Notes: generated by a model not told the origin, from the sequence alone. Counted from the first letter of the stretch, positions 8,054-23,794 are shown. The stretch: 24,000 nt of DNA from Planctomycetota bacterium (GCA_043816955.1 JBDRHL010000104.1:3790-27789); one strand, 5' to 3'. Translations and numbers: made by a program.

Positions 8054-8059
8054 CTATCA

Positions 8060-8578
8060 ATGCGATGGTTACGCTTTGCTGCAGTCGTTCTGATCGTGGT
8101 GTTGCTCCGGTTAAGCAACATAGATGACCTTATTGCGGTCACACGTTTCGGTATCAAGCCGGATCCGTTTTTGATACTGCTGGTTTTTTTTGCTGTTCAA
8201 TGCAGCGGCCATGATGCTATAATAATCTCATTTGTCCTGGGTTTTGCAGCGGATTTGGTCGGCGGCGCTATGGGCGTCCACATGATAAGCTTTGGCCTGT
8301 TGGGCTCGCTGCTTTGGCAGATTAATCAAGTCATCGTTGTCAGAAAATCAATGCATTTTGCCGCGGCTATATTCGTCACGGGATTCTGTTCAGAATTCAT
8401 TATACATTTCCTCACGGCGCTCAAGCTGGCTGACAGACCCGCCAATACATACCTGCTTGTCTTTGGAACATCAGTGTATTCGGCAGCTATAGGTCCGTAT
8501 ATCTGTTCAGCACTAAAACTGGCATCGAAATGGATGGGCCTCAGAAGGTATCGCCTCAGAATATCCATTGACAGGTAG
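8060..8578 (+). CDS. mreD: Rod-shape-determining protein MreD
   Basis: 172-aa polytopic hydrophobic protein in the conserved position after mreC. GAGGA lies 9 nt upstream of the ATG. The call rests mainly on synteny and topology. Confidence 0.7.
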   Translation: MRWLRFAAVVLIVVLLRLSNIDDLIAVTRFGIKPDPFLILLVFFAVQCSGHDAIIISFVLGFAADLVGGAMGVHMISFGLLGSLLWQINQVIVVRKSMHFAAAIFVTGFCSEFIIHFLTALKLADRPANTYLLVFGTSVYSAAIGPYICSALKLASKWMGLRRYRLRISIDR

Positions 8579-8581
8579 ACA

Positions 8582-10696: not shown

Positions 10697-10712
10697 CACT
10701 GATGAACACCTC

Positions 10713-12416
10713 TCAAAAGGTTTTTGCCGGGTACATTTGCTCAAGGTAGTTCAGCGTTTTTTCGATTATTGAGCCCACTACCGGTGCCGCTACTGTTCCC
10801 CCCGTATAAGCAATGCTCTTATCAGGATTACGTATCGAGACGAGCACAACTATCCGGGCATCTTCAGCAGGAGCACCTCCGATAAAAGATGAAACATAAT
10901 AGTTATCATAGCCGGCTTCTCCAGACCTGGCGATGTTTGCAGTTCCCGTTTTTCCGAAAACGTGCCATTTTTCCAGCCTGGCTTTTTGGCCTGTCCCACG
11001 CTCTACTACTCCTGTAAGCGCCTGCATCACTATCTGTTTTGCTGCCTCGGGCTTTATTACATAGCCTGCAGGACTAGGCGCCTGTTTCAGATTATGAATC
11101 TTGCCATCGCTGTCAACAAAGGCTTTGACTACGTACGGCCTGACCTGTTTTCCTCCGTTTGCAAGTATGCAGAAAGCCCGTGCTATCTGAATTGCGGTAA
11201 CGGCAATTTCCTGGCCGAATGGTATTCTTGTTACGCTGTAACCGGTCCATCGATCAGTCGGCCACAAAATCCCACAATCTTCACCCGGCAGATCAACTCC
11301 CGTTTTCTGCCCAAATCCGAAAAGTTTTAATCCATCATACAGTTTTTCCTTACCCATTCGCTGGCCTATTTTGGCCATCCCGATATTGCTGGATTTGATT
11401 AGAATCTCGCATACGCTAAGCGTTCCAAAGCGATGGCTGCCGTATTCACCGATCCTTCCAAAACCCTTACCGCGATAATCCCCTTGTTCACAGAAAATTT
11501 TCTCTTCGATACTAAGGATGTCATTGTCTATGGCTATTGCGGCCACAATCGGTTTAAGTATACTTCCGGGTTCGAAAGGATCACAGATCGCACGGTTTTT
11601 CAGTTTGGACGGTTCGACCTTGCTGAAATTACACGGATCAAAATCAGGCAGTGATACCATAGCCAGTATCTCACCGGTTTTCGGCTTCATTACTATCACT
11701 ACTGCCGAGTCGGCATTGTACTTCTTGAACTGCTTGTAAAGCTCATCGCGGGCAAATTGCTGAATAGTCGCATCAATCGTCAGAATCACCCCCATCCCCT
11801 CTGAGCATTGTGCCTTTTGCTCTCTGGGCCAGATGGGCTTGCGCGACGCATCCACGAAAAATATATCTTCCCCGGATGAGCCGCACAATGTCTGATCATA
11901 CAGAAACTCTGCCCCCGCCAGACCATGCTGTTCAGCGCCGACAAAGCCGATCACATGGCACATCAGCCTGCCTGTTGGATAGTATCTTGTCCAATCGGAA
12001 AATAATCCTACCCCAACGATATTCTCTCTTCTTACTGTATCGATTTCCCACTGCTTGAGATTTGCTTTGATTTTCACGAAACCGCGGTTTCGGCTATCTT
12101 TGATAATCCGGGCAATCTGCTCGGAAGGAATGTTTATTGTTCTGTGGAGTTCTAATGCGGTCTTGTTAACATCTTTTACTATTCTTGGTTCGGCAAAGAC
12201 GCTGTAGGTCTCATTGCTTGCCGCAAGAAGCCTTCCGCGACAGTCGACCACTGCTGCCCGGCGGGGATTATATTTGATATTTACCTGGCGTTGTCTAAGA
12301 GACAGATGCTGGTATTTGCCCGATTGAAAATACTGAAGATAGAAGCACCTTCCTGCCAGCGCTATAAATGAGCACAGAATAGCTGTTACAATGATTGCGC
12401 AGCGGATGATCCTCAT
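10713..12416 (-). CDS. ftsI: Penicillin-binding protein 3 / FtsI (divisome class B transpeptidase)
   Basis: TM anchor, then SxxK (EPGSILKP), SxN (KSSNIGM) and KTG (FGKTGTAN). It lies downstream of an ftsL-like gene in a dcw-type cluster. Confidence 0.85.
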   Translation of the reverse strand: MRIIRCAIIVTAILCSFIALAGRCFYLQYFQSGKYQHLSLRQRQVNIKYNPRRAAVVDCRGRLLAASNETYSVFAEPRIVKDVNKTALELHRTINIPSEQIARIIKDSRNRGFVKIKANLKQWEIDTVRRENIVGVGLFSDWTRYYPTGRLMCHVIGFVGAEQHGLAGAEFLYDQTLCGSSGEDIFFVDASRKPIWPREQKAQCSEGMGVILTIDATIQQFARDELYKQFKKYNADSAVVIVMKPKTGEILAMVSLPDFDPCNFSKVEPSKLKNRAICDPFEPGSILKPIVAAIAIDNDILSIEEKIFCEQGDYRGKGFGRIGEYGSHRFGTLSVCEILIKSSNIGMAKIGQRMGKEKLYDGLKLFGFGQKTGVDLPGEDCGILWPTDRWTGYSVTRIPFGQEIAVTAIQIARAFCILANGGKQVRPYVVKAFVDSDGKIHNLKQAPSPAGYVIKPEAAKQIVMQALTGVVERGTGQKARLEKWHVFGKTGTANIARSGEAGYDNYYVSSFIGGAPAEDARIVVLVSIRNPDKSIAYTGGTVAAPVVGSIIEKTLNYLEQMYPAKTF

Positions 12417-12451
12417 CCCTTGCCTCGAAAAAGATTAACCCACAGTATATT

Positions 12452-12679
12452 TCACCGGGATTCTTCCAGACGCTGGGATATTGTCGCCGGGTTGATCAGA
12501 CTTTCCAACCGTAACTTCTCCTGCCACAAGCTCTGCTTAAGACGATCTGCCTGCCTTTGTGCAACTCGATATTCAAAAAAAAGACGGTTCCGCCCAGCAC
12601 GTAGTTGCACGGTTATACTTAAAAGAAAACAAACATAAAACAATAAAAAAATAAACCGAAGTGGAATCTTTAGACTCAT
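12452..12679 (-). CDS. ftsL: FtsL/DivIC-like small bitopic division protein
   Basis: 75 aa with one TM helix (LRFIFLLFYVCFLLSITV) followed by a short Leu-rich coiled coil (RQADRLKQSLWQEKLRLESL). It sits directly upstream of ftsI. Confidence 0.6.
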   Translation of the reverse strand: MSLKIPLRFIFLLFYVCFLLSITVQLRAGRNRLFFEYRVAQRQADRLKQSLWQEKLRLESLINPATISQRLEESR

Positions 12680-12697
12680 CTGCGGCCTCGGTTAAAG

Positions 12698-13498
12698 CTA
12701 ATGAGCCGGCAATTTCAGTATCATACCTACTTTTAGTGTATCTTCATCATCTATCATGTTTTTATTCAATTCCACGATCTCGCGGTATCTGCTTCCATCG
12801 TTCAACTGGCTCTGGGCAATCTGCCAGAGACTGTCACCTTCCCTGACCGTATATTGCCCGTGTTGTTCTGAAACTGTCATTTCAGACAGATGCTTTCTGC
12901 CTATTGATGCTGCTTCTTTCAGCAACCCACTTGCCTTTGCCATGGCAACCTCTCCGGGCTTGTCCGATGATCCCAGAGGCGGAATTGCCAGTTTTTGACC
13001 GGGGTACAATTCATCCGGTGACTTAAGCACATTCTTGTTGGCAGCAAAAATGTGATTAACCGCGGCAAGTTTACTTCCTTCCAGCGGACCATAGAACATC
13101 ACGGCGACGGAAGCCAGATTGTCACCTTCGCGAACAATATAATAACCCGAAGAGGCTGTCTCTGTAACGCTGCCTTGAGGTATATCTTTTTCCGAATTGA
13201 CCACATTTGCCTTTGGTTCCTCAATGCGTTCTGCCCGGCTGTCTGCCTTGGGAGGAAGATTCATCTGGAAGCGTGCCGAATCCTGCGCCGGGCTGGATTC
13301 GTAGCTGATTTTCTCCGCTGCCTTGCGCGCCTGCTCATTCAACGTGTCAGTTTCATTCTTCAAATTGTCAATATAACGGCTCGTAAGCTCGTTGGTGTCA
13401 TCACTTTTACAGAGCCGCGGCCAACCGTTGATTACAAATCCTATTACAAATATAAATGCTAAACCCAGCAATAATCCGATCTTGGCATCTGAGGTCAT
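12698..13498 (-). CDS. Membrane-anchored protein with two LysM peptidoglycan-binding domains
   Basis: N-terminal TM helix IGLLLGLAFIFVIGFVINGW. Two LysM-type units are present: YIVREGDNLASVAVMFYG...LYPGQKLAIP and YTVREGDSLWQIAQSQL...YREIVELNKNMIDDEDTLKVGMILKLP. Confidence 0.75.
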   Translation of the reverse strand: MTSDAKIGLLLGLAFIFVIGFVINGWPRLCKSDDTNELTSRYIDNLKNETDTLNEQARKAAEKISYESSPAQDSARFQMNLPPKADSRAERIEEPKANVVNSEKDIPQGSVTETASSGYYIVREGDNLASVAVMFYGPLEGSKLAAVNHIFAANKNVLKSPDELYPGQKLAIPPLGSSDKPGEVAMAKASGLLKEAASIGRKHLSEMTVSEQHGQYTVREGDSLWQIAQSQLNDGSRYREIVELNKNMIDDEDTLKVGMILKLPAH

Positions 13499-13525
13499 AA
13501 TCGAAACTCCGTTTCCGATCTGTGG

Positions 13526-14431
13526 TCATTTCTTTCTTGCGATTCTGAGTTTGGCGCTCCTGGCACGGGGATTGTCCCGTACCTCGACAAGTGTCGGAAC
13601 AATCGGCTTTTTTGTCACTAACTCATAAATACCTTGCGCCTTGTTATCTTTGAAATTCTCTTTTACCAGTTTATCCTCAAGACTGTGAAAGCTGATAACC
13701 GCCAGATAACCTCCCGACCTGAGCAAATCACAGGCTGCTGTAAGAAACCTTTGAAGATTTTCAAGTTCGTCGTTGACAGCTATCCTCAGCGCCTGAAACG
13801 TTCGCGTAGCCGGGTGTATCCTGCTTTTTCTGCCCCTCGCTTTCTGTCGCTTGGCCCGGCAGATTATATCCGCCAGCTCCATGGTCGTCCTGATAGCCTT
13901 TTTCTTACGGGCCTGAACGATAAAACGTGCGATTCTCCGGGATGCTTTTTCCTGGCCGAATCTGTATATCAGATCTGCCATAGATTGTTCATCAATTCTG
14001 TTTATAACGTCTGCTGCCGTCGTTTTCAGTGATCTATCGAGTCTCATGTCGAGGGGCATCTCTGACTGAAAGCTGAGCCCAAGCTCCGGATCCGTCCATT
14101 GCGATGAACACACACCCAGATCGGCTATTATCAAATCAACCTTGTCCATGCTGAATTTGCCAAGTTCTTCTCTGATATTCGCAAAGTTCGAACAGATCAG
14201 ATTAACTTTACAGGAAAGGTTGCTTAATCTCGTTCGGGCCCTGGAAGCGTTTCTGCAATCAACGTCGAATCCGAATATTTGTCCTTCAGGGCCCAAAGCA
14301 GTTCCAAACAGTAAGCTGTGTCCTCCATGACCAATAGTGGCATCAATTATTATCCCATCCTTGGGAACGCTTATCTGTTCAATCAGTTCTCTTTTGAGTA
14401 CTGGAACATGGTCAATAACTTCACTATTCAC
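13526..14431 (-). CDS. rsmH: 16S rRNA (cytosine1402-N4)-methyltransferase RsmH (MraW)
   Basis: HVPVLKRELIEQI...IIDATIGHGGHS is the RsmH signature. Also present are DLGVCSSQ and ISFHSLEDKLVK. The start is GTG, preceded by GGAG. Confidence 0.9.
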   Translation of the reverse strand: MNSEVIDHVPVLKRELIEQISVPKDGIIIDATIGHGGHSLLFGTALGPEGQIFGFDVDCRNASRARTRLSNLSCKVNLICSNFANIREELGKFSMDKVDLIIADLGVCSSQWTDPELGLSFQSEMPLDMRLDRSLKTTAADVINRIDEQSMADLIYRFGQEKASRRIARFIVQARKKKAIRTTMELADIICRAKRQKARGRKSRIHPATRTFQALRIAVNDELENLQRFLTAACDLLRSGGYLAVISFHSLEDKLVKENFKDNKAQGIYELVTKKPIVPTLVEVRDNPRARSAKLRIARKK

Positions 14432-14488
14432 TTTTCCACTCCGGCAAAATATTCTGCCAGAAGTAAATAAAGAGCACTGATCCCGGCC

Positions 14489-14698
14489 TCAGTTTATGCC
14501 TACCTCTTTCTGATGTTTGCAAAGTTCACCCACCTCCTCAGAAAACTCGATCGCAGCGAACATACTGTCGCGGCGTTTCAAACGTTCAAGCCGGTCCCGT
14601 AGAATCGCTATTGACGCAAATGTCTGCTCTCCTATGGTCCCCTGGCCGGAAAGGCTGTCGTTTACTACTTGGCAATGGCTGCAATCCGTTGCGAACAT
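14489..14698 (-). CDS. 69-aa hypothetical protein inserted between mraZ and rsmH
   Basis: A strong SD (GAAGGAG) lies ~10 nt upstream of ATG 14698, which is 15 nt after the mraZ stop. No recognisable motif. The arrangement looks coding, but homology is unknown. Confidence 0.45.
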   Translation of the reverse strand: MFATDCSHCQVVNDSLSGQGTIGEQTFASIAILRDRLERLKRRDSMFAAIEFSEEVGELCKHQKEVGIN

Positions 14699-14713
14699 CT
14701 TTTAATTTCTCCT

Positions 14714-15193
14714 TCAATACTCAATTTCCCTGCTTTGTTTTTGCAGAACACTTTGTCGGGCCTGCAGCAGTTGCTGCTGGTGTTGATCCATATGATCGTG
14801 GAGGTATTGCTCCCAGCTGGATGTGTTCCAGATTTCAATATGATCCCTCACACCCACCATCGTAAGATGATTCCCAAGCCCTGCACGTTTTCTGAGTTTT
14901 TCCGACAGAAGTAGTCGTCCTTGCCGATCCAATTCCACCTTGCTGGCTAGGGCGAAACTGATTCTTTCAAATGCTACAGTTTCATCCGGGGCAGCCATCC
15001 CTGGCGCCACGGCAAGGGCGATTTGCTCAAAACACTTCTCTGGATAGAGACAAAGAATTGCATTGGCACCAAAAGTCAGATAAAAATTGCCTCCATGTTT
15101 ATCGACATCTATCTGACTGCGAAGCTTATTTGATATGAACACTCTGCCTTTGCTGTCAATTGTATGTTCATACTCACCTGTTAGCAAAAGCAT
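14714..15193 (-). CDS. mraZ: Transcriptional regulator MraZ
   Basis: Two SpoVT/AbrB-type repeats each carry a DxxGR motif: TIDSKGRVFISNKLR and ELDRQGRLLLSEKLR. I prefer the start at ATG 15193 (MLLLTGEYEHTIDSKGR, GGAG ~9 nt upstream) over the track's 15259, whose extension would cover the predicted promoter. Confidence 0.88.
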   Translation of the reverse strand: MLLLTGEYEHTIDSKGRVFISNKLRSQIDVDKHGGNFYLTFGANAILCLYPEKCFEQIALAVAPGMAAPDETVAFERISFALASKVELDRQGRLLLSEKLRKRAGLGNHLTMVGVRDHIEIWNTSSWEQYLHDHMDQHQQQLLQARQSVLQKQSREIEY

Positions 15194-15221
15194 GGTTTTT
15201 ACTCCACTGAAAGTACCATTT

Positions 15222-15256
15222 GTGGGATATGTTACCACTATCCCCCACCAAGTCAA
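15222..15256 (-). promoter_or_regulatory. Putative dcw (mraZ) promoter with embedded GTGGG-type MraZ boxes
   Basis: Read on the minus strand: TTGACT (15256..15251), 16-nt spacer, TAACAT (15234..15229). GTGGG (15248..15244) and GTGGT (15238..15234) are spaced 10 bp apart. An inverted GTGGG lies at 15222-15226 on the plus strand. A long T/A tract (15269-15287) sits upstream. Confidence 0.4.
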
Positions 15257-15318
15257 CAACTAAAATCATTTTTTTTCTTTTTTTTGAAAATTTTTATTAT
15301 AGGATGTAGTTCGACAGT

Positions 15319-15353
15319 CTATTTGGCCAATTTTACCGCTAAATGGCCAAAGA
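15319..15353. repeat. TTGGCCAA motif pair (left flank)
   Basis: ctatttggccaatttt (15319-15334) is the reverse complement of aaaattggccaaatag at 23425-23440. A degenerate copy aaatggccaaaga lies at 15341-15353. Confidence 0.8.
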
Positions 15354-15367
15354 CCCCAGAAAAGAAA

Positions 15368-15458
15368 ACCCCCGCCCATGATGTTGCATCATTTTTTTGA
15401 TCACCCTCATTTTTAGCTTGTAAACACGGTTCTATAGACTTCGTGTCCTGTTTTTCCT
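15368..15458. repeat. Direct repeat copy A (att-like), next to the mraZ promoter
   Basis: acccccgcccatgatgttgcatcatttttttgatcaccctcatttttagcttgtaaacacggttctatagacttcgtgtcctgtttttcc aligns to 23612-23700 with about 5 substitutions and 1 indel. The identical 35-bp core is 15408-15442. Confidence 0.85.
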
Positions 15459-15517
15459 GCCGTGTTTTAGGCCCTAAACTACCCAGGCCGGATAAGGTCT
15501 CCTAATAATATACAAGG

Positions 15518-15943
15518 TTATATGGTCTTTTTGGGGAATACTAACGGGCTAATTCCAAGCCTTCTGATGTTTACCCAATAACGTCCTAAGGCACTTTTAC
15601 TTGCTTTGTATTTATACTTTTTAAGCAAAAAACTTGATGTTTTTTTTATGTTGTATCCACTTAAATAACATTTGATAACCGGTAATTCTAAGCCCCTCTT
15701 TTCGATTCCTGTATGAATCATCCGCTTCTTTGATCTTGCTTGCCGAAAGTATAGCCAGACTCGCTCCGCTTCTGCATCCAAGTTTCCCGGCAATCTTTCC
15801 TTACCCAATACATAATTGATGCTTTCCCAGTTGTCGGATTCAACCTTACAGATACCATAAGGAGACGTGATCTCCACTGAAAACTTCAAACCGACCTGGG
15901 GAAGCCTTGGTAATTTTCCCGCTGCTTTGTTTTTCTTTTTCAT
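15518..15943 (-). CDS. AT-rich 141-aa protein with a probable C-terminal helix-turn-helix, function unknown
   Basis: It is the last gene of the island operon, starting 2 nt after the upstream stop. By eye it is clearly more AT-rich than its neighbours. The C-terminus GYNIKKTSSFLLKKYKYKASKSALGRYWVNIRRLG resembles transposase/terminase-small type HTH. Confidence 0.5.
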   Translation of the reverse strand: MKKKNKAAGKLPRLPQVGLKFSVEITSPYGICKVESDNWESINYVLGKERLPGNLDAEAERVWLYFRQARSKKRMIHTGIEKRGLELPVIKCYLSGYNIKKTSSFLLKKYKYKASKSALGRYWVNIRRLGISPLVFPKKTI

Positions 15944-15945
15944 AA

Positions 15946-16449
15946 TCAGAATTGACCTCTACTGTACTTATCCCATATTTCGGCATCGGCTTCGTCCTCG
16001 GATTCCTGCAACCTGGGACCTACCTCTGAAAGCCATGCCTTAATTTTAGGAAGCACTTCAGGTTTGATTCGCACTAATACAGCTCGTATTCTTTCCAAGG
16101 TTTCAGCCTTGTTCGGTTTTGCAACGGCATATAATCTTCTGTTCGGATTTATGGTTAAGGCCTCTATTCCCTCCTGTGATGATTCAAGGTGCATCCTGAA
16201 GAATCTGAGAGCCAGCCCGTTCATGTTATTACTAAGCAGGTTTATTATTTCGTCTGTTTCCTTTGAAGCCGTCACATCAACGGGCGTAACGATGTCTCCT
16301 GCTCTGTGATTCAGTTTTCTGCGCTCCAGCTTAACCATAACAATACCCAGCCATATATGCACCCAGCCAAATACCAGCCGTAAACTTGAAACAGCAAGTA
16401 TCGCAATCATCAAAACCAGCTCAAACAGTTTTTCTTTCAGCTCTCTCAC
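15946..16449 (-). CDS. 167-aa membrane protein, function unknown
   Basis: The GTG start overlaps the upstream stop (GTGA). The N-terminal hydrophobic stretch LFELVLMIAILAVSSLRLVFGWVHIWLGIVMV could form one or two TM helices. A soluble, acidic C-terminal domain follows. Confidence 0.5.
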   Translation of the reverse strand: MRELKEKLFELVLMIAILAVSSLRLVFGWVHIWLGIVMVKLERRKLNHRAGDIVTPVDVTASKETDEIINLLSNNMNGLALRFFRMHLESSQEGIEALTINPNRRLYAVAKPNKAETLERIRAVLVRIKPEVLPKIKAWLSEVGPRLQESEDEADAEIWDKYSRGQF

Positions 16450-16970
16450 GGCTTATCGTACCTTTGCCTGGCAAGCTCACTATCCAGCTTAATGTCCAGG
16501 CCGTTTTCATCTATCAATACCGAACCAAACTCAAGAACCAGGTTCATCTGTTTCAACCCTTCCCCCTGCCAATCCAGAAAGCTTTTTATCATAATGGTCA
16601 ACTGCTTCTTGTGTAAAACCATCGGTGCTATCTTGTCTTCAAAATATTTTTTAGCACCCGTTATCTGCTCTTCAAATTTCATTTGCTCGGCATCAATGCC
16701 CGCCTGCATTTCCGCCATTTCGCGGATAGCACTTCCTATCTGGCCAAAAGAGCTTATTCCTTTTCTCAACTGCGATGCAGGGGCGGCTCTCTCTGTTGGA
16801 ATAATCGGCTCTATTACAGCGGCATTGCTTGCCCGTCTCGAAACATTCGCACAATCCTTGCATAAGGTACGCCGTCCATCCCTGTTTTTTTTGTCTCTTG
16901 CAAAGGCTTCCAGTGGCTTTTGTATCTTGCATACCCTGCATATTTTTTCTGATACCTCTACGGCGGTCAT
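16446..16970 (-). CDS. Zn-ribbon protein with Gam-like (host-nuclease-inhibitor-like) helical region
   Basis: N-terminal CxxC...CxxC: CRVCKIQKPLEAFARDKKNRDGRRTLCKDC. The stretch IGSAIREMAEMQAGIDAEQMKFEEQITGAKKYFEDKIAPMVLHKKQLTIMIKSFLDW...LEFGSVLID follows the pattern of the Mu Gam N-terminal half as I recall it (IG..RE...E......F...IAP...I..L...V..W....L..G.V). The recall-based alignment is unverified. Confidence 0.4.
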   Translation of the reverse strand: MTAVEVSEKICRVCKIQKPLEAFARDKKNRDGRRTLCKDCANVSRRASNAAVIEPIIPTERAAPASQLRKGISSFGQIGSAIREMAEMQAGIDAEQMKFEEQITGAKKYFEDKIAPMVLHKKQLTIMIKSFLDWQGEGLKQMNLVLEFGSVLIDENGLDIKLDSELARQRYDKP

Positions 16971-16976
16971 GGTTGT

Positions 16977-18563
16977 TTATTCCTCGTTAGCTGTGTATCT
17001 GCCAACTTCATTAGGCTCGACCGCCGGATAATAATTCATGCTATAATCATTGTTATTGTTTATAACGACAGGTGCCTGGTTTTTCATTTCCTCAACTTCG
17101 CGGGCAATAGCAGCCATGTGCTTGGGGTGCACTGTAAAAGGACCACTGTGTATTGTAAGCCTCATGTTTAATGCTGCTATTTCATCCAACTGTTCCGGTG
17201 TGGTGGCAGTTTTTTCAAGCTCGTTCAAGTCCTCACTTATGGCCTTTACTGCAAGAAGTTCCGTTTCCCACTTATCTGGGATTAACCACTTGTCTTCGCT
17301 CTTTGTCTGGAGAACCTTAAATTTCCCCTTGGCCTCTTTAAGCCTTAACTGCCAGGCTTCAAACCCCGGAGCGGCTTCGATATATTCCTTTTCAATTTCG
17401 GCCTCTATCGCCCTGGTTTTTCCGAGCCGTGATTTTTTGTAGGCCTCTACCTGCCGGTCGATCAACTCTGGTGTGGCCTGTGATATTTTTTGCGCAGTTG
17501 CAGCAAAGGTTTGTATGGCCTCCGGCGTTACCATTTTTCCTATTTCACCTGCAAGCCCAGGCTCAAAGCCCATCTCTACAAGCCTCTGCATACGCATGTT
17601 TTCAGGGATACCCCTGGCATATTGCAGCAACGCCCCCACCCGCTGGTCCATGTTCAAATCTTCCCACTTCAAGCCAAGTCCCGCTTCAATAGCCTTTCTT
17701 GGCTTTTCGTACCCACCGCTTGACAGCCGCGTTACCTGTTCCAGCAGGCTCGCTGCAAGGGCCTCGTTTGTCGTTATTGCACGAGCTGAGGCAAAAGCAG
17801 CCAAAGCCCCCTCGAACGAGCCACCAAGGCCCATATAGCCTGTGGCGCCTTTTTGCAGGCCCTCTATAAAAGCACCGAACTTTTGAGCCTTTGACGCGGT
17901 ATAAGTGGCCTGAAGCTTCGACAAATAACCCATCCAGGCCTGCTCATTCGGAGCGACACCTGCTGTCCCTGCGAACTCAAACAGTTTACCAACCTCTTCT
18001 TCGCCAAGCAGATTAGCTCCGGCAAACGGAGCAATTTTTGCCAACAGCGCCCGCACCTGCTCATTTTTCATTCCACCTTGAGCACCAAAGGCAATATCAC
18101 CCGATATGAGCATCTGCTTGCCAACACCGACATCTTTTAATCCCCCCGCCTTTTGCAGCCTTAAGGCCTCTTTGGTCCAAAAATCCGCCTGGCCAGGCGT
18201 GCCCGCCTGCATCACAAGGGCCTGGCCAACCTCGGAAAGACTGGTTGCTTTTTCTGTTATCTCTTTTTGAAGCTGCTTAATCGCTTCCAGTCTGTCAACA
18301 AGCCAATTAACAACCTTTATTAACGCCTGGGCACCAATCCACGCGCCAAACATCGACATCAGGGCGGTTTTTGCCTCGCCTGCAACCTTGCCCATAATGC
18401 CTATTTTTTGTGTGGCTTGCTCTGTCGAATGGGCCGCCTGCTTCTGGCCTTCAGTGGTTTTTTCGCCAAGGTCTTTTGTGCTCGCTGCGACCTTGTCTAT
18501 GTCCCGCTTGGCCTGATCTGCGCCCTGTGCCTGGACGCGAATGTTTATATCTTTATCCGGCAT
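16977..18563 (-). CDS. Tape-measure-like protein (528 aa)
   Basis: The N-terminus INIRVQAQGADQAKRDIDKVAASTKDLGEKT is typical of tape-measure proteins. A hydrophobic segment follows. The Ala/Gly-rich core (LSEVGQALVMQAGTPGQADFW...LISGDIAFGAQGG...FEFAGTAGV) resembles the TP901-type core, and the C-terminal part is a long helical region. No tail tube or chaperone genes accompany it. Confidence 0.5.
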   Translation of the reverse strand: MPDKDINIRVQAQGADQAKRDIDKVAASTKDLGEKTTEGQKQAAHSTEQATQKIGIMGKVAGEAKTALMSMFGAWIGAQALIKVVNWLVDRLEAIKQLQKEITEKATSLSEVGQALVMQAGTPGQADFWTKEALRLQKAGGLKDVGVGKQMLISGDIAFGAQGGMKNEQVRALLAKIAPFAGANLLGEEEVGKLFEFAGTAGVAPNEQAWMGYLSKLQATYTASKAQKFGAFIEGLQKGATGYMGLGGSFEGALAAFASARAITTNEALAASLLEQVTRLSSGGYEKPRKAIEAGLGLKWEDLNMDQRVGALLQYARGIPENMRMQRLVEMGFEPGLAGEIGKMVTPEAIQTFAATAQKISQATPELIDRQVEAYKKSRLGKTRAIEAEIEKEYIEAAPGFEAWQLRLKEAKGKFKVLQTKSEDKWLIPDKWETELLAVKAISEDLNELEKTATTPEQLDEIAALNMRLTIHSGPFTVHPKHMAAIAREVEEMKNQAPVVINNNNDYSMNYYPAVEPNEVGRYTANEE

Positions 18564-18681
18564 AACAATAATCTCCGTAAAATTCTACGCCCGCCGCCGA
18601 TGTTTACCTGTGCATAAACCAGGCAGACGGGCGTAGTAACCGCAAACAGGTCTTTGAAAAAGAAAAACAAAGCTATTAAAA

Positions 18682-19134
18682 TCAGGCAGTTATAAGCTCC
18701 GCAAGTCCCTGGCCCGCTGCATTTTTCGGACCCTGGCCTGAATGCCTTGAAAGTATGGCGATAATCGCCAGGTTGCAGCCGGTTGTGCCATTGCCCGCGT
18801 GCGGGGCGTTGACTTCCATGTATCGCTTATGGCTTTTTGTCAGGTCAAGATCAATGGCAAACAGGGAATCATCCTCACTTGCACCGATTGCATCAGCCAG
18901 CGCTGCACTTGTTACGGCGGTATAGGCCCCATCGGTAGTGTCGCACTCCTCCACAAACGGAGCTGCACCTTCAGCGGTTGAACCTATAGCTTCATCAACT
19001 GTGCCGACGATAAACAAAAAGCGGACATGGCCCCAACCCTGGGTATCCACATAGATGTTACCTGCAAAATCACCGTCATCCTTAAGTTGTGGTGGCGTCA
19101 AAATCACTGTTTTTGTTTCTTGTATATCAATCAT
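18682..19134 (-). CDS. 150-aa protein following the capsid gene (possible head accessory/decoration protein)
   Basis: The call is based on position directly after the major capsid gene and on a beta-rich, acidic sequence. No diagnostic motif was recognised. Confidence 0.3.
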   Translation of the reverse strand: MIDIQETKTVILTPPQLKDDGDFAGNIYVDTQGWGHVRFLFIVGTVDEAIGSTAEGAAPFVEECDTTDGAYTAVTSAALADAIGASEDDSLFAIDLDLTKSHKRYMEVNAPHAGNGTTGCNLAIIAILSRHSGQGPKNAAGQGLAELITA

Positions 19135-19212
19135 TTTTCTACCTCAAAAAAGTAAAATACTTTCAGTTGTAAAAACCAGTTAAACATCCTTTAATTGTCA
19201 ATTACACTGCCG

Positions 19213-20391
19213 TTAAGAAGCAGCGGTAATCAATCCGACGATCGGTCCGGCATCGGTAGTGTCACCGACACCATACACGGCAATATCTATCCGTTCTTTG
19301 CCTCGTATGCCGACCTGGTCGTTTGCAAAATAGACATCGACCGATTTATCAATAGTGATCTCTTTTCGCTCACCAAGGAAAGCGCCCGTATACAGATCAC
19401 CCAGGATCGCGCATATCTGGCTGTCATCTTCCGTGCTCGGCATACAGGAGACAAACTCAACCGGATAGCCCAGCAGATACCTGGTCTTTCGATCAGAGAG
19501 AATGTCAAACAGGTTCGCAACACCGGCAGTGACGGCAAGCGGATACACAACGTTCCAGTAGAACTTGCGGTTCATGTACCACTTGGCGTTTTCGTCTGCC
19601 TCTTCCGGCAAAAGCGCCACGACACCTTCAAAATCAACCAGGGCTATTTCCGAATACGCATTGCCGGAAGCAACCTTCAGACCCTTGATATTGCCTATGG
19701 TTGCATCTACCGCCATCAATGCACCGACTATTCCGGTCATGCCGAAGTATGTCGAAGTGCCATCACCGAGGAAGCCTATCAGGTCCTCTTTCCTGGCAAG
19801 GCTGCGCACTATCGATTGACCGATAATCTCACCCAGGGCAATAACTGAATCCTCCTCAAGCTCATTGCTGGCCTTTGCCAGGCAAATAAGCTTTCGGCAG
19901 GTCAGGGCAACCTGGGAAAACGACATGTCGCTTGGGGTAACAGCGCCACCCTCACCAGGACAATAAATCGTAAGGTCGCTTTCGACCTTGGGAACCATAA
20001 GCCTGTCGCTTTTCATCGGAACACGAAGCGCATTTTTGCGAAACTTGCTATACACACCAAGCAGGCTTATTATGTTTGCTGCAAGCTCCTCAGGCACAAG
20101 AACGCCGCCATCAACATTGACCGTCTCTTCCATAGCCTTCTTGCCTGCGACGTGCAGGATTATCTCGCCAAATCCCTTGGCCTGTTCTTCATGCATCCAC
20201 AACAAAGGCCTGTCGCCTTTGTCTGCTGCACGAGCTATCGTGCCTGATTTCCGTAAAATCCGAAGCTCATTCCCTATATCATCCAGGTGTCTTTTCATTG
20301 TGGGCATATCACCCTGTTTGTTTTCAATATCTTTTAATCTTTCACCTATGACCTTGAAGGCCTCGGCGATTTTTTCATCCGTTGTCAACAT
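19213..20391 (-). CDS. HK97-family major capsid protein
   Basis: 392 aa with AGGAG 8 nt upstream of the ATG. The N-terminal helical delta-like region is EKIAEAFKVIGERLKDIENKQGDMPTMKRHLDDIGNELRIL. The body follows, including GGVLVPEELAANIISLL and C-terminal GIRGKERIDIAV. The gene lies after a prohead protease gene. Confidence 0.75.
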   Translation of the reverse strand: MLTTDEKIAEAFKVIGERLKDIENKQGDMPTMKRHLDDIGNELRILRKSGTIARAADKGDRPLLWMHEEQAKGFGEIILHVAGKKAMEETVNVDGGVLVPEELAANIISLLGVYSKFRKNALRVPMKSDRLMVPKVESDLTIYCPGEGGAVTPSDMSFSQVALTCRKLICLAKASNELEEDSVIALGEIIGQSIVRSLARKEDLIGFLGDGTSTYFGMTGIVGALMAVDATIGNIKGLKVASGNAYSEIALVDFEGVVALLPEEADENAKWYMNRKFYWNVVYPLAVTAGVANLFDILSDRKTRYLLGYPVEFVSCMPSTEDDSQICAILGDLYTGAFLGERKEITIDKSVDVYFANDQVGIRGKERIDIAVYGVGDTTDAGPIVGLITAAS

Positions 20392-20455
20392 TTCGTATAC
20401 TCCTAATGTTTAATTTTGATAATTCGATTAACATTTTTTACCAGCTCCCAGCTTG

Positions 20456-20488
20456 AAAAAAGGCGCTGCCGCTGGTAGAGACAGCGCC
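20456..20488 (-). terminator. Terminator-like hairpin plus T-run between the protease and capsid genes
   Basis: Read on the minus strand: GGCGCTG (20488..20482), 13-nt loop, CAGCGCC (20468..20462), then TTTTTT (20461..20456). An alternative inner pairing GCGCTG/CAGCG is possible. Confidence 0.4.
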
Positions 20489-20610
20489 CAGGACAAGAAA
20501 AAAAGAAACTGACCGAACCATAACAAGTCTCGAAAAAATTGCAGACCCGCACATGCAGCATCGAGCCTGCCGGCATGCACCTTGTCAATACAATTTTCAT
20601 GTTATTATCC

Positions 20611-21465
20611 TTAACGTCTTGAAACCAAGGCCACAAAATCCGTCTCAGGCAAACCAGCCTTGCCCTTGGCGGATTCAGGAATATTCTTGACTTTACCAGA
20701 GATATTTTTCTGGTTGCAAATCTCTCTTATAAAATCACACGCAAGCTCTTTTATTTTTTCTATGCCTACCTTCGCCTGTAATTCAAAAAATTTGTCATCG
20801 CTTAACCCGACGCCCTTTATTATCGCTTCAAGGACCGGGCAGGCAAAACAATCCTCACCCACAGGATCACTGGAAAGCAGCACGCTGCCAAAATCTTCAT
20901 CATCATCCAAAATATCATCCAGGGGCAGATCGTATTTTTCCTGCCGCTTGGCATCGACAAAATCCGCTTTTCGCTGCCTTGATTTACTAAGAGCGGCCCT
21001 GTTGCTCGGCACGGCAACTGCCGAGATTTCCAGCAGCTCTACACGCGTGAAGGTCCGGATTGTCCGTCCACCTTCATTGGCGGTGTCCTTCCATTCCTTT
21101 GGAATAAAACCGATTGAAACCGCCCGCATGTAACCATCCCTGTAGAGCTGCCAGTATTCCTCAGCAAGCTGCGTCTGCGCAAATTCGACAACAACCCAGA
21201 AGCCGGTTTTATCTATCCAGGCGTTGATGATCTTTCCGATAACAGGCGATGTGCCATCACTAAGCCTGTGCTGATGCGCAGCCAGAAAAACGGGGTTAGA
21301 CATAAATATATTCAGGTCCGCCTTGAATGCGCTGGGAAGGATTATCTCCCCATCCCTGTCCGTGTCACCCGTCGAGGCAAGAAAGCGAATCTGCCTCTTT
21401 TCGCCGTCAACCGCCCCCGCCTTGCACACCCCCTGAAAATATTTCGTTTGAATATCCGTATCCAT
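20611..21465 (-). CDS. HK97-family prohead protease (S78-like) with C-terminal acidic/scaffold-like extension
   Basis: FLASTGDTDRDGEIILPSAF...NPVFLAAHQH gives the His context and MRAVSIGFIPKEW the Ser context. Both match the pattern of the HK97 gp4-type protease family. About 110 extra C-terminal residues are rich in Asp. Confidence 0.7.
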   Translation of the reverse strand: MDTDIQTKYFQGVCKAGAVDGEKRQIRFLASTGDTDRDGEIILPSAFKADLNIFMSNPVFLAAHQHRLSDGTSPVIGKIINAWIDKTGFWVVVEFAQTQLAEEYWQLYRDGYMRAVSIGFIPKEWKDTANEGGRTIRTFTRVELLEISAVAVPSNRAALSKSRQRKADFVDAKRQEKYDLPLDDILDDDEDFGSVLLSSDPVGEDCFACPVLEAIIKGVGLSDDKFFELQAKVGIEKIKELACDFIREICNQKNISGKVKNIPESAKGKAGLPETDFVALVSRR

Positions 21466-21488
21466 TTTTTCTCGTCCTTGATTTTAAT

Positions 21489-21953
21489 TTACCACAGGTA
21501 TAAGCCTGAAAATCTCTTGTTACAGCCCTTCGGACAAATCCACTGGGCCTCGGTAATCATATCTCCCGGCGCAGCCTTTATCTTCCACTGGGCCTCACAG
21601 AACGTGCAGCCGATAATCCCTTTGTCGGCATCTATCACCTTGATTTCGCGCCTAAGCAGTTCCCTGGCAGAAAACCTGATGTGCACCTTGTTGCTCTTGC
21701 GCTCGATGTAAGGTATCCCCATAATCAAAACATTCAGGTCCAGATTAAGAGCTGCGGCAAAACCGGCAACATACTCCAGGTTAAGCGCTGCCTGGCCGGT
21801 TTCGATCTTTTTGATTAACATGGCCTTATCCAGGCCCATCATTTCCTTGATCTGCCTGTAGGATAGATTATTTTTCTCCCGCGCCTCTTTCAGCCTGGCT
21901 GCGACACCCCGCATTATCTCAGGAGTTATCTGTTGTGTTTTTTGCTCTGTCAT
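21489..21953 (-). CDS. XRE-family HTH protein with C-terminal Cys-cluster domain
   Basis: The HTH is LKEAREKNNLSYRQIKEMMGLDKAMLIKKIETGQAALNLEYVAGFAAALNLDLNVLIMG. The C-terminal Cys cluster is GCTFCEAQW...WICPKGCN (CxxC...CxxxC). Confidence 0.65.
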   Translation of the reverse strand: MTEQKTQQITPEIMRGVAARLKEAREKNNLSYRQIKEMMGLDKAMLIKKIETGQAALNLEYVAGFAAALNLDLNVLIMGIPYIERKSNKVHIRFSARELLRREIKVIDADKGIIGCTFCEAQWKIKAAPGDMITEAQWICPKGCNKRFSGLYLW

Positions 21954-22277
21954 TTATGCGTGATCCTCACCATAACGAGCGCTTAATTTAAGTCCTGTAA
22001 CGGATTCTTCCTCTCTTGCTTCCTTAATAAAAGTTGTCAAGGCTTCATCAATATCGAACTTGTGAATGATCGCAATTTGTTCATTTATAATTGCAATCTT
22101 TTTTTCGCGATCATCCGTTGCATCAAGTTTCGCTTGCAGCTCCTCAAGTTTTTTCTGTGTTCGAAAAACATAATTAACCAAAAGTCCCCGTTGTCGGTCT
22201 GTCAAAGACTCAACGATTTCGGCTGCTGTTAATTTCTTGTCTATAGCCGATCTTTCAATTCCTAATGTCGCGTTCAT
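21954..22277 (-). CDS. 107-aa helical hypothetical protein
   Basis: It is tightly packed in the operon, 1 nt after the upstream stop and abutting the next start. Coiled-coil-like segment KKLEELQAKLDATDDREKKIAIINEQIAII. No motif recognised. Confidence 0.45.
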   Translation of the reverse strand: MNATLGIERSAIDKKLTAAEIVESLTDRQRGLLVNYVFRTQKKLEELQAKLDATDDREKKIAIINEQIAIIHKFDIDEALTTFIKEAREEESVTGLKLSARYGEDHA

Positions 22278-22278
22278 T

Positions 22279-22524
22279 TTAGTCCCCTTTCTTCTTACTG
22301 TTTTTTATATCCTGCCCGATACAATTCGGGCATTTTTCCTCTTGCTGTTTCGCGCGAGATTCAATACCATTGCGTCGTTTGAAAGTTTTATTGCCCAGGT
22401 GTTCTATGATGCTAACCGCTGCTGCATTACCTGGGGGACGGTGTTCGTTTGCCGCCCTTTGGTTGACAAGTTCAACGGCCCTTGTGTCAGTTATTATTAC
22501 CCTTTTGACTGGTCTATACGCCAT
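22279..22524 (-). CDS. First gene of the island operon; possible ribbon-helix-helix (Cro/Arc-like) regulator
   Basis: GAGG lies 9 nt upstream of ATG 22524. The N-terminus PVKRVIITDTRAVELVNQRAANE...NAAAVSIIEHL fits a beta-strand/helix/helix layout. The tail is basic with CPNC. The gene is divergent from the CI-like gene. Confidence 0.4.
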   Translation of the reverse strand: MAYRPVKRVIITDTRAVELVNQRAANEHRPPGNAAAVSIIEHLGNKTFKRRNGIESRAKQQEEKCPNCIGQDIKNSKKKGD

Positions 22525-22541
22525 TTTGTTTAACCTCTATT

Positions 22542-23090
22542 ATGTCATTCATTGGCTACATTACTCAGATGCCTGAAAGCTGTCAAGACAAAAATATCGA
22601 AAAAGTCGTAGATTTTTACAGTTTCGGGGAACGTGTCCGCCATGCGCGAAAACAAGTCAAGCTTAATCAGACTGAGTTAGCAGAAAAAATAGGAGGCACT
22701 ACCCATGCCACAATCAGCAACATTGAAAAAGGCAAAGTGAACCCCAGCATCGAAATTACCGCCAAAATCGCCCATGCCCTTAATCTTGACCTCCATTGGC
22801 TTATTACAGGCCAAAGCTCCCCTACAAGTCAGGAAATTCATAAGATTCTTAGGCCCTTTGCCACAGTCCATCTTTCGGGTATAATGCGTCAAATACAGGA
22901 TTTAGAAAAGGAACGCCAGCAGCTAGAATCCCTGCCACTCACAGAACGAGCAATAGCTATAAGCCGTTTATACGAAATCCAGGATGAGCTTGAAACCCAT
23001 CATTTGCATTATAAGGTTATGTTCGATAGAATCAGTGAAGCAGATAAATTTATTAAGCCTTCCCAGGAACCTGACAAAACCAAAACTTAG
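22542..23090 (+). CDS. CI-like XRE-family repressor without a peptidase S24 domain
   Basis: The HTH is FGERVRHARKQVKLNQTELAEKIGGTTHATISNIEKGKVNPSIEITAKIAHALNLDLHWLITGQ. The C-terminal half is helical/coiled (IQDLEKERQQLESL) and shows no Ser-Lys autocleavage domain. The true start may be ATG 22569 (MPESCQDK). Confidence 0.7.
   Translation: MSFIGYITQMPESCQDKNIEKVVDFYSFGERVRHARKQVKLNQTELAEKIGGTTHATISNIEKGKVNPSIEITAKIAHALNLDLHWLITGQSSPTSQEIHKILRPFATVHLSGIMRQIQDLEKERQQLESLPLTERAIAISRLYEIQDELETHHLHYKVMFDRISEADKFIKPSQEPDKTKT
22558..22586 (-). promoter_or_regulatory. Strong sigma70-like promoter for the island's minus-strand operon
   Basis: Read on the minus strand: TTGACA (22586..22581), 17-nt spacer, TAATGT (22563..22558). 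It lies ~34 nt upstream of ATG 22524 and inside the 5' end of the track's plus-strand ORF 22542-23090. Confidence 0.5.
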
Positions 23091-23317
23091 TACTCTTTAG
23101 TTTATATAAGTACACTCAACAATCCTTTGTTTTACTTAGTGGAACCATTAGACTTAGTATAAGCATATTAAACCCGACAAGAAAAATCTTATAAATTTTC
23201 AAAGAATTTTTTCAGCCAATTTCCACCCAGACCGCTCCGAAGGCCCAAATCGGTCATTTTCCGCTCATATTTTACCCATCTTACCTCTATATTGGACATA
23301 GAACATACTGGAAATGT

Positions 23318-23380
23318 GTCGTTTTGAATGTCGTTTTGTCGTTTCATCCAGCGACATATCTGATTTTGTATTTTGTATTT
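23318..23380. repeat. Iteron-like short tandem repeats in non-coding DNA
   Basis: GTCGTTTTG occurs at 23318-23326 and 23330-23338, and GTCGTTTC at 23338-23345. Another GTCGTTTT lies at 23602-23609. ATTTTGT repeats in tandem over 23362-23380. Confidence 0.6.
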
Positions 23381-23424
23381 ATAAGCCCTTTGGAGGCCTT
23401 TTAAACACGAGTTAAACGTTTTGT

Positions 23425-23598
23425 AAAATTGGCCAAATAGGTGGAAAAATCCGGCCAAAATCCCCAAATTGGCCAAATAGGAAACTGCTTAAATTGGACG
23501 ATAGAAGTCCTCAGAAAACCCCCTTTTCGGCCCCTTGAACCCGCTTTTTATTGGCTAACTTCAGTTATTCCCGCCACTTCGCCATTTTGGCCAAATAG
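23425..23598. repeat. Cluster of near-palindromic TTGGCCAAAT(AG) motifs (right flank)
   Basis: aaaattggccaaatag at 23425-23440, ccggccaaaa at 23451-23460, aaattggccaaatagg at 23466-23481 and ttttggccaaatagc at 23586-23600. The related left-flank copies are listed in the 15319-15353 repeat feature, including the identical 16-mer in inverted orientation. Confidence 0.8.
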
Positions 23599-23611
23599 CT
23601 TGTCGTTTTAC

Positions 23612-23700
23612 ACCCCCGCCCATGATACTGCATCATTTTTTCATCACCCCCATTTTTAGCTTGTAAACACGGTTCTATAGACTTCTTGTCCTGTTTTTCC
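23612..23700. repeat. Direct repeat copy B (att-like)
   Basis: It aligns to 15368-15458. The identical 35-bp core catttttagcttgtaaacacggttctatagacttc is at 23651-23685. Confidence 0.85.
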
Positions 23701-23794
23701 CACCAAGGCCCATATAGCAGGTTGTGCCTTTTTGCAGGCCTACCATGAACTTGCCGAGCTTCAAAGCCTGAAAATAAACGTCGCACAATTGAGG
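23699..23794 (-). pseudogene. Fragment of a second, diverged tape-measure-like gene fused to repeat B
   Basis: The plus-strand sequence ccaccaaggcccatatagc...tttttgcaggcc matches 17821-17860. The minus-strand translation LCDVYFQALKLGKFMVGLQKGTTCYMGLGG aligns with LQATYTASKAQKFGAFIEGLQKGATGYMGLGG of the 528-aa protein. An in-frame TGA lies just upstream at 23797..23795. Confidence 0.7.

Follow-up and report, generated by a model that had tools for sequence, protein, structure and literature searches.

The 24,000-nt stretch of a Planctomycetota bacterium analysed here (GCA_043816955.1 JBDRHL010000104.1:3790-27789; the window) carries a phage-derived island upstream of the host gene mraZ. Its limits are set by terminal inverted repeats at 15305-23612 (8.3 kb), in place of the 15319-23700 proposed in an earlier interpretation (the sequence-only reading), and the window stops 388 nt past its right end. 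The eleven open reading frames (ORFs) listed in that reading are all present and uninterrupted; ten lie on the minus strand and one on the plus strand (22542-23090). The minus-strand genes form a compact operon, as had been described, in which six of the nine junctions are overlaps or gaps of 0-23 nt, including the GTGA start/stop overlap at 16446-16449, and the other three measure 78, 118 and 219 nt. The genes are as follows.

15518..15943, minus strand: 141-aa protein, last gene before the L-type end (L-end)
15946..16449, minus strand: 167-aa protein with a hydrophobic N-terminus
16446..16970, minus strand: 174-aa Zn-ribbon and Gam-like protein (N-terminal Zn-ribbon, weak Mu Gam profile match)
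16977..18563, minus strand: tail tape measure protein, 528 aa (synteny and AlphaFold/Foldseek)
18682..19134, minus strand: 150-aa head-module protein, PHROG 5707, function unassigned
19213..20391, minus strand: HK97-type major capsid protein, 392 aa (Phage_capsid, E 1e-37), of the short-N-terminus "compact" clade
20611..21465, minus strand: S78 prohead protease, 284 aa (Peptidase_S78, E 2e-13)
21489..21953, minus strand: 154-aa protein with HTH_3 and a Cys-rich C-terminus (profile search)
21954..22277, minus strand: 107-aa protein (ORF), the sole accessory gene without a positional homologue in the compact elements described below
22279..22524, minus strand: 81-aa protein (ORF)
22542..23090, plus strand: divergent CI-type helix-turn-helix (HTH) repressor candidate, 182 aa, with HTH_3 and no S24 domain

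Most of the labels given in the sequence-only reading held. Profile matches agree with it on the HK97-type protease and capsid, on the Zn-ribbon/Gam-like protein and on the CI-like repressor without S24 domain, and the tape-measure-like 528-aa protein is supported by synteny and viral fold matches. The label XRE/Zn for the 154-aa protein stands in its first part through HTH_3, and the second part comes down to a Cys-rich C-terminus; the labels RHH-like (81 aa), membrane (167 aa) and HTH (141 aa) received no profile support. ABIG61_07545 and ABIG61_07540, two hypothetical proteins of an NCBI Planctomycetota metagenome-assembled genome (MAG), match the 528-aa and 174-aa proteins respectively at 100% identity, and the capsid is 100% identical to a protein of the same MAG annotated as phage major capsid protein. 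Look-ups of the exact repressor, capsid and tape measure sequences gave no entry.

The reported absence of an integrase, terminase, portal, tail tube or lysin was likewise confirmed: searches of the eleven ORFs against Pfam, PHROGs, NCBIfam and PADLOC gave no match to the integrase, transposase, terminase, portal, tube or lysin families. In particular, no ORF has the DDE_2, rve or Mu-transpos match of a MuA-type DDE transposase, and the profile search of the island proteins returned neither an AAA match, as for a MuB-type AAA+ target protein, nor a primase family. Connectors are also missing from the profile matches, though they were never searched by name. The island contains no tail tip or lysis genes, and thus not the complete virion and packaging module of a ~36-39 kb genome, and between its ORFs there are no pseudogene fragments of integrase, transposase, terminase, portal or tube genes. 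Scans of the window found no Rfam family and no tRNA, and the PADLOC defence models gave nothing beyond generic HTH matches in the island. The island does not have the genes needed to make virions on its own, and yet it is conserved as a unit across its relatives.

The 528-aa protein has 50 homologues at 37-51% identity, which directly follow the tail tube gene wherever a complete phage module is visible. Its AlphaFold model (24 sequences, pLDDT 80) is all-helical, and in a Foldseek search of viral structures the model matched 68 proteins at E<=1e-3, the named top matches being tape measure or minor tail proteins. No portal, terminase or recombinase fold was matched by the model; a profile search against PDB sequences and a Foldseek search against PDB were uninformative. 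By both gene order and the match of the predicted fold, the protein is a true tape measure. Its closest homologue, with 51% identity across the N-terminal 315 aa, carries a frameshift and belongs to a decaying prophage on L011, L015 and L016 (L-numbers label the loci or contigs of relatives). These three contigs begin within ~200 nt upstream of the tape measure gene, and in L011 the start of an IS5-like transposase gene lies upstream of it. L011/L015 had been considered as a second reduced island, which the frameshift and the IS5-like gene rule out.

Together with the capsid, the 150-aa protein is the best-conserved product of the island; in full phages as well as in compact elements its homologues are 49-72% identical. 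Its single-sequence AlphaFold model, with a pLDDT of 50.8, is too poor to be informative. Two tandem copies of the gene occur in L004 (2-833). The 174-aa protein is a putative DNA-end protector: it shares 32-33% identity over ~166 aa with the post-tape-measure gene of the compact elements L120 and L122, annotated Phage_Mu_Gam (tblastn). A word-based homologue search with this protein returned only the protein itself, and the weaker homologues in sister elements surfaced with tblastn.

Mu-type termini and full-size relatives

The structural genes of the island, coding for the S78 protease, HK97 capsid, 150-aa protein and tape measure, are homologous (33-72% identity) to those of uncultured full-size phages of Planctomycetota with genomes of ~32-36 kb, for example IMGVR_UViG_3300024262_000125. 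The gene order of these phages is Mu_Gp27 small terminase, large terminase, portal-Mu_F fusion, S78 protease, capsid and 150-aa protein, followed by five or six head-tail genes, the tube, the tape measure and tail proteins of 130, 715 and 250 aa. On the opposite strand, ~5-8 kb upstream of the terminase, lie MuA (640-660 aa, with DDE_2, Mu-transpos_C, HTH_Tnp_Mu_2 and rve domains), a MuB-like AAA protein, GemA and Gam, a layout that recurs at more than 25 loci. By homology, the island's structural genes belong to Mu-like transposable siphophages, which use MuA/MuB instead of an integrase. Such relatives therefore have no integrase by nature, and this removes the central puzzle of the sequence-only reading. 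The integrase and attachment-site (att) logic implied there gives way to MuA/MuB in relatives and sister elements and to TG...CA ends with subterminal repeats.

Other arrangements occur among the relatives. In L111 (16649-21239) tail-fibre-like structural genes lie in the early-gene arm beside the L-end; full phages split their structural genes across the arms. In L007 (3000-14300, a Pirellulales MAG) MuA-MuB-GemA-Gam are followed by the tube, the tape measure and proteins of 130 and 720 aa, with no head genes. L007 adjoins a tRNA-like sequence (by eye) and is a Mu-like element reduced or rearranged in another way.

The following end features were mapped on the island.

15305..15330, plus strand: L-type terminus, 5'-TGTAGTTCGACAGTCTATTTGGCCAA, terminal inverted repeat partner of 23587-23612 (21/26 identical)
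15319-15330, minus strand: subterminal site L1, exact TTGGCCAAATAG, putative transposase-binding site
15339-15350, minus strand: subterminal site L2, TTGGCCATTTAG, two mismatches, putative transposase-binding site
23091..23612, plus strand: R-type end region with sites R3 (23429-23440), R2 (23469-23480) and R1 (23587-23598), all exact TTGGCCAAATAG

The island starts with 5'-TGTAG (15305) and ends with TACA-3' (23612), giving TG...CA termini; the R terminus ...CTTGTCGTTTTACA-3' closes at 23612, and the right terminal repeat reads TTGGCCAAATAGCTTGTCGTTTTACA. Five 12-nt sites of the TTGGCCAAATAG type are present, four of them exact, with two in inverted orientation at the L-end and three at the R-end. 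Across the window, 10 matches with at most two mismatches were found against 2.98 expected, and none of 100 shuffles reached 10. The R-end region also contains, at 23320-23350, two copies of GTCGTTTT, which matches the start of the terminal GTCGTTTTACA, and a similar third copy, GTCGTTTC.

Comparable ends are found in the full phages. Their L-ends (L111, L112, L119) start with TGTRGT and carry two sites at an island-like spacing, and their R-ends (L008, L013, L015, L018, L024) finish in ...ACA, preceded by a site and GGGAA-rich repeats. The first site sits at a conserved distance from the terminus, and the right end region of the island can be aligned with that of one full phage across more than 200 nt. 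Four compact elements (L120, L122, L124, L135) have ends of the same architecture, of the form TGTAA.../...CTACA, with the R-type end beside the repressor; inverted k-mers mapped no ends for L127, L133, L134 and L136. L120 is flanked by a clean 5-bp target duplication, ATAGT/TGTAAAC...AAACTACA/ATAGT. Mu/B3-like phages have TG-CA ends and a 5/6-bp duplication as their recognised hallmarks (PMC8705779). Taken together, these features show that the island carries Mu-type termini.

An 89-nt direct repeat, which lies partly outside the island, involves two further features.

15368..15457, no strand assigned: conserved non-coding L-end block containing the TTTTTAGC-TTGTAAAC motif, the left copy of the "direct repeat"
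23612..23770, minus strand: relic of a second, related element outside the island, consisting of an L-end block and a tape-measure fragment

The left copy lies 63 nt inside the L terminus, and its TTTTTAGC-TTGTAAAC motif is also found inside the L-end regions of full phages. The right copy (23612-23700) is 93-95% identical to 15368-15457 and begins at the terminal base of the R-end. It is joined to a 24-codon tape-measure fragment (23699-23770) with 16 of 24 aa identical (E 7e-6) and 77% DNA identity to 17821-17890. The right flank is thus the relic of another, related element. The R terminus abuts position 64 of that element's L-end region, for which a transposase-mediated adjacent deletion is one possibility. 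The 89-nt repeat was considered as an att core and ruled out, the left copy being internal and the right copy lying outside the R terminus and fused to the tape-measure fragment. Because the repeat is no excision core, an excision junction joining 23685 to 15408, which had been suggested as a check, is not expected.

A family of compact elements

At least ten other compact elements (~8-10 kb) share the reduced layout of the island, either between host genes or on short viral contigs. Their common order is a divergent repressor, small genes, in some cases MuA and MuB, the protease, the capsid, the 150-aa protein, the tape measure, a Gam-like protein, a protein of ~160 aa and in some cases a 141-aa-like protein. 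L120 lies between a sulfatase gene and thiD, and L122 between tatD and dnaG-rpoD on a 498-kb contig; L124 is followed by mraZ-rsmH-LysM-PBP (PBP, penicillin-binding protein) and L127 by fur-ferritin. L133, L134, L135, L136/L138 (two elements in tandem) and L139 are on viral contigs. MuA/MuB stand inside the compact layout in L127, L134 and L136. No terminase, portal or tube gene was found within any compact element, and no integrase in their gene tables.

Six of the seven accessory genes of the island, all but that for the 107-aa protein, have positional homologues in these elements. Repressor homologues (33-44% identity) occupy the same divergent position in L120, L122, L127 and L134-L136, and homologues of the 81-aa protein (41-55%) lie at the same position in L122 and L139, as does one of the C-terminus of the 154-aa protein in L122 (32%). 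The Gam-like gene is followed by a homologue of the 167-aa protein (25-42%) in L120 and L122, which lies farther downstream in L124. Homologues of the 141-aa protein (27-36%) are likewise terminal in L124 and L135, and in L134 and L136 they come after MuB. Sister elements share the absence of an S24 domain from the repressor. The non-cleavable repressor, which had been taken to fit helper-dependent derepression, is thus a family trait and not by itself evidence for it.

We have high confidence that the compact family is real; it is widespread in Planctomycetota and apparently undescribed. The island is placed in it by its short-N-terminus capsid and by the synteny between its R-type and L-type ends. 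Our own first model, a one-off deletion derivative of a complete Mu-like phage, had been based on the 50 other tape-measure homologues (<=51% identity), all of which, in the contexts read, lie in complete or decaying phages. It was dropped once the capsid search and the contexts revealed a conserved family. A random deletion derivative was also the outcome that the sequence-only reading had set against its own proposal; it does not agree with a reduced set that recurs in at least ten other elements and with capsids that form their own clade, an outcome in favour of the satellite.

Within the family several variants were seen. In the tandem pair L136/L138 (1-14590) the first element has the order repressor-protease-capsid-150 aa-MuA-MuB-141-aa-like, and the second repressor-protease-capsid-tape measure. 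L127-L132 are six of the 23 contigs on which the capsid of one MuA/MuB-bearing compact element was found; in L129 an insertion or duplication of ~155 nt interrupts MuB. In L135 (66-2056 and 5892-14512) a distance of 4 kb separates the compact element from genes for a large terminase and a Mu_F-portal, which belong to a full phage and are encoded on the other strand. This phage may be a helper, or a host prophage that received the insertion.

The capsid distinguishes the compact elements from the full phages. It has 759 homologues at E<1e-20; the best 120 of these share 54-63% identity with it, almost all being full-length and almost all having 387-404 aa. Full-phage capsids, at 33-51% identity to that of the island, have 422-491 aa and mostly align only from residue ~45-85 onward. 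In a simple neighbour-joining tree, drawn without support values, a single clade unites the 11 compact capsids (388-398 aa), and the 20 full-phage capsids fall outside it. The compact state therefore appears to be old and not the product of repeated decay. The region before the conserved capsid core measures 80-89 aa in the compact elements versus 117-179 aa in the full phages. In HK97-type capsids this region is the scaffold-like delta domain, and its systematic shortening is a plausible handle on shell size.

The tape measures are distributed differently. Those of the island, L120 and L127 are closest to full-phage tape measures, with 47-57% identity over nearly the whole length (47-49% for the island), and reach at most 39% with those of other compact elements. 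This suggests that tape measures were exchanged with, or matched to, the phages whose tails would be used.

A further feature of the compact elements is the leader of the capsid gene.

20392..20610, minus strand: non-coding gap of 219 nt between protease and capsid genes, with a conserved hairpin, then a G+C-rich hairpin and a T run

Eight of the ten compact elements examined have a gap of ~200 nt after the protease gene (for example L122 9795-10000, L127 9794-10000 and L120 9279-9477), and the remaining two have gaps of 80 and 321 nt. Protease and capsid genes are 2-27 nt apart in the three full phages that were checked. Most of the gaps aligned share a hairpin GCYGG...CTGCG, in which eight of 12 pairs show compensatory changes; a G+C-rich hairpin and a T run come after it. 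A pattern search for this hairpin in full phages returned noise only. The hairpin and T run may act as a regulated terminator.

The host locus is the division cluster, with mraZ, rsmH, a LysM protein and PBPs on the left flank. In the window (7244-15259) mreC-mreD-PBP2 on the plus strand face minus-strand genes for an ftsI-like PBP and the LysM protein, together with rsmH and mraZ; division clusters usually have ftsL at the position that the LysM protein occupies here.

15229..15256, minus strand: host mraZ promoter-like site, TTGACT-16-TAACAT, intact, 48 nt outside the L-end

At the mraZ site of L124 (7300-8900, 16270-16420; also L125 and L126) there are two R-type ends ~700 nt apart with an opposite-strand 91-aa ORF between them. 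This arrangement suggests insertions that were nested or in tandem, and a tRNA gene is found just outside the L124 element.

Possible satellite function and comparison with known systems

What could an element with head genes, a tape measure and no means of packaging be doing? The reading that we favour, with a little better than even confidence, sees the island as a transposase-less member of a compact Mu-type family whose members are most likely satellites of full-size Mu-like siphophages. The sequence-only reading had named three possibilities, a new kind of satellite, a domesticated capsid-forming module and a prophage reduced by deletions, and had leaned towards the first. That the compact family functions as a satellite is held with moderate confidence. 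By infection or induction, a helper Mu-like phage would supply MuA/MuB to members like the island, and other members would use their own. Having no transposase, the island would therefore depend on a helper for transposition too. With these enzymes bound to its end sites, the element would be amplified through replicative transposition, and the helper would also provide terminase, portal, connectors, tail tube, tail tip and lysis. The element's protease, capsid and 150-aa protein would build capsids, possibly smaller ones, fit for ~8-10 kb, from which the helper genome would then be excluded. The tape measure of the element, which belongs to a type also found in full phages, would fit the helper's tail, the Gam-like protein would protect the injected linear DNA, and capsid expression would possibly be gated by the hairpin and terminator before the capsid gene. 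More tentatively, at somewhat less than an even chance, we propose that these elements make up a new class of satellite which combines Mu-type transposition, own capsids with short scaffolds and a helper-matched tape measure with the helper's terminase, portal and tail, and in which hairpin and terminator may gate capsid expression.

Several observations weigh against the satellite reading, and some of them speak for a domesticated host module that is kept vertically. The island and L124 are inserted at the identical point, 48 nt from the TTGACTTGGTGG mraZ promoter box, and the divergence between the two elements (capsid 57%, protease 50%) is similar to that between the host proteins (RsmH 58.5%, PBP 56%), a pattern more in keeping with a long vertical residence than with a satellite on the move. 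The island lacks a target duplication (TAGGA vs CCCCC), because its right flank is the relic of another element, and only one of the five elements with mapped ends has a clean one. The search for a helper by the TTGGCCAAATAG-type end motif together with the L-end block gave no exact match in viral and metagenome contigs. Moreover, a transposase-less member cannot integrate by itself in a new cell, the satellite reading gives no reason for the element to have its own tape measure, and the capsid tree is a simple one. A domesticated module could serve anti-phage assembly sabotage, in which an altered-scaffold capsid and an invader-matched tape measure disrupt the assembly of an invading Mu-like phage, or could be one locus of a multi-locus system like a gene transfer agent (GTA). 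The intact ORFs of both the island and L124, the absence of MuA/MuB from four of the five elements flanked by host genes and the tape measure types shared with full phages agree with such a role. We nevertheless regard domestication as rather unlikely. The capsid of L124 groups with that of L122 from the tatD/dnaG locus and not with that of the island, and relics of further insertions are present at the mraZ site in both the window and L124. Both Mu-type ends and the five sites are nearly perfect, which a purely domesticated module would not need, and the transposase-less L120 has a fresh-looking 5-bp duplication. PADLOC gave generic HTH matches only, and no portal or terminase is known elsewhere.

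The missing transposase and target duplication are also compatible with an inert remnant, a copy left stranded and without function that descends from the compact family or from a Mu-like prophage and awaits decay. The rearranged right junction abuts another relic, no helper was found, no relative among the best 120 homologues exceeds 63% capsid identity, and the 174-aa protein matched only itself in the word-based search. Against this stand the eleven intact ORFs with clean junctions and no internal pseudogene fragments, and the preservation of four exact 12-nt sites and both termini, whereas the neighbouring relic is down to 160 nt; transposase-less sister elements also keep the same gene set. 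We consider a remnant quite unlikely. Hardly any credence is given to an integrase-type island bounded by the 89-nt repeat as an att duplication, with its recombinase acting in trans or encoded beyond the window. Such an island would explain the near-identity of the two repeat copies (15368-15457 and 23612-23700), but not why the right one begins at a Mu-type terminal base and continues into a tape-measure fragment, or why the left one is internal. In addition, related phages conserve the repeat block within their L-end region, and the family uses MuA/MuB, with no integrase in the gene tables of its compact members.

If the satellite reading is true, a family of satellites with the ends, and sometimes the enzymes, of transposable phages would represent a new way of hijacking a virus. 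To our knowledge, the known satellite families all integrate with a recombinase. Full-text literature searches returned no description of Mu-type or transposase-based satellites, and no capsid in deposited phage genomes is more than 27% identical to that of the island. The family looks large and resides in a phylum with almost no characterised phages. Does the shorter N-terminal domain lead to a smaller shell, what is the tape measure for, can the transposase-less elements use a helper's MuA, and does the host keep some copies as a defence? More generally, "integrase-less phage islands" deserve a check for TG...CA ends before they are called remnants.

Among known systems, the island resembles siphophages of the Mu/B3/D3112 type in its TG...CA termini, subterminal repeats, divergent HTH repressor and Gam. 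Full Mu-like phages differ in possessing MuA/MuB, terminase, Mu_F-portal, connectors, tube, tail tip and methylase. In addition, the head and tape-measure genes of the island lie in the arm reading towards the L-type end, which in full phages holds the early genes, and the N-terminal region of its capsid is much shorter than in full Mu-like phages. The gene set lies outside P4-like elements, PICIs, capsid-forming PICIs (cf-PICIs), PLEs and PICMIs, as the sequence-only reading had concluded: P4-like elements, PICIs, PLEs and PICMIs are defined by an integrase and marker genes, and the island ORFs gave no integrase or primase match. cf-PICIs have an integrase and their own portal, terminase and connectors, but no tape measure; they make small capsids and borrow tails. 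The island is like them in its own HK97 capsid and prohead protease, and unlike them in having no integrase, portal or terminase and in its Mu-type mobility. GTA clusters are without transposon ends and contain genes for portal, terminase and tail. The island shares with GTAs a reduced head module of phage origin and a possible vertical inheritance at one locus, and at the island locus itself no portal, large terminase or tail gene cluster of this kind was found.

A bioRxiv preprint (PMC12822802) names cf-PICI, MiniFlayer, MulchRoom and Phanie as capsid-encoding satellites and describes none of them as transposable. A precedent for a small satellite with a tape measure is given by the EPIP satellites of Mycolicibacterium, which have no capsid gene and are suggested to manipulate helper tails (PMC12822802, December 2025 preprint). 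These belong to another host phylum and are not described as transposable. The closest parallel in mobility is engineered. Mini-Mu and mini-D3112 consist of two Mu ends with or without A/B, and for transposition and packaging they rely on a helper, which supplies the missing functions in trans (PMC8705779). The compact elements differ from them in being natural, diversified and conserved and in carrying their own capsid, protease and tape measure; if they are satellites, they would be the natural counterpart of the laboratory mini-Mu.

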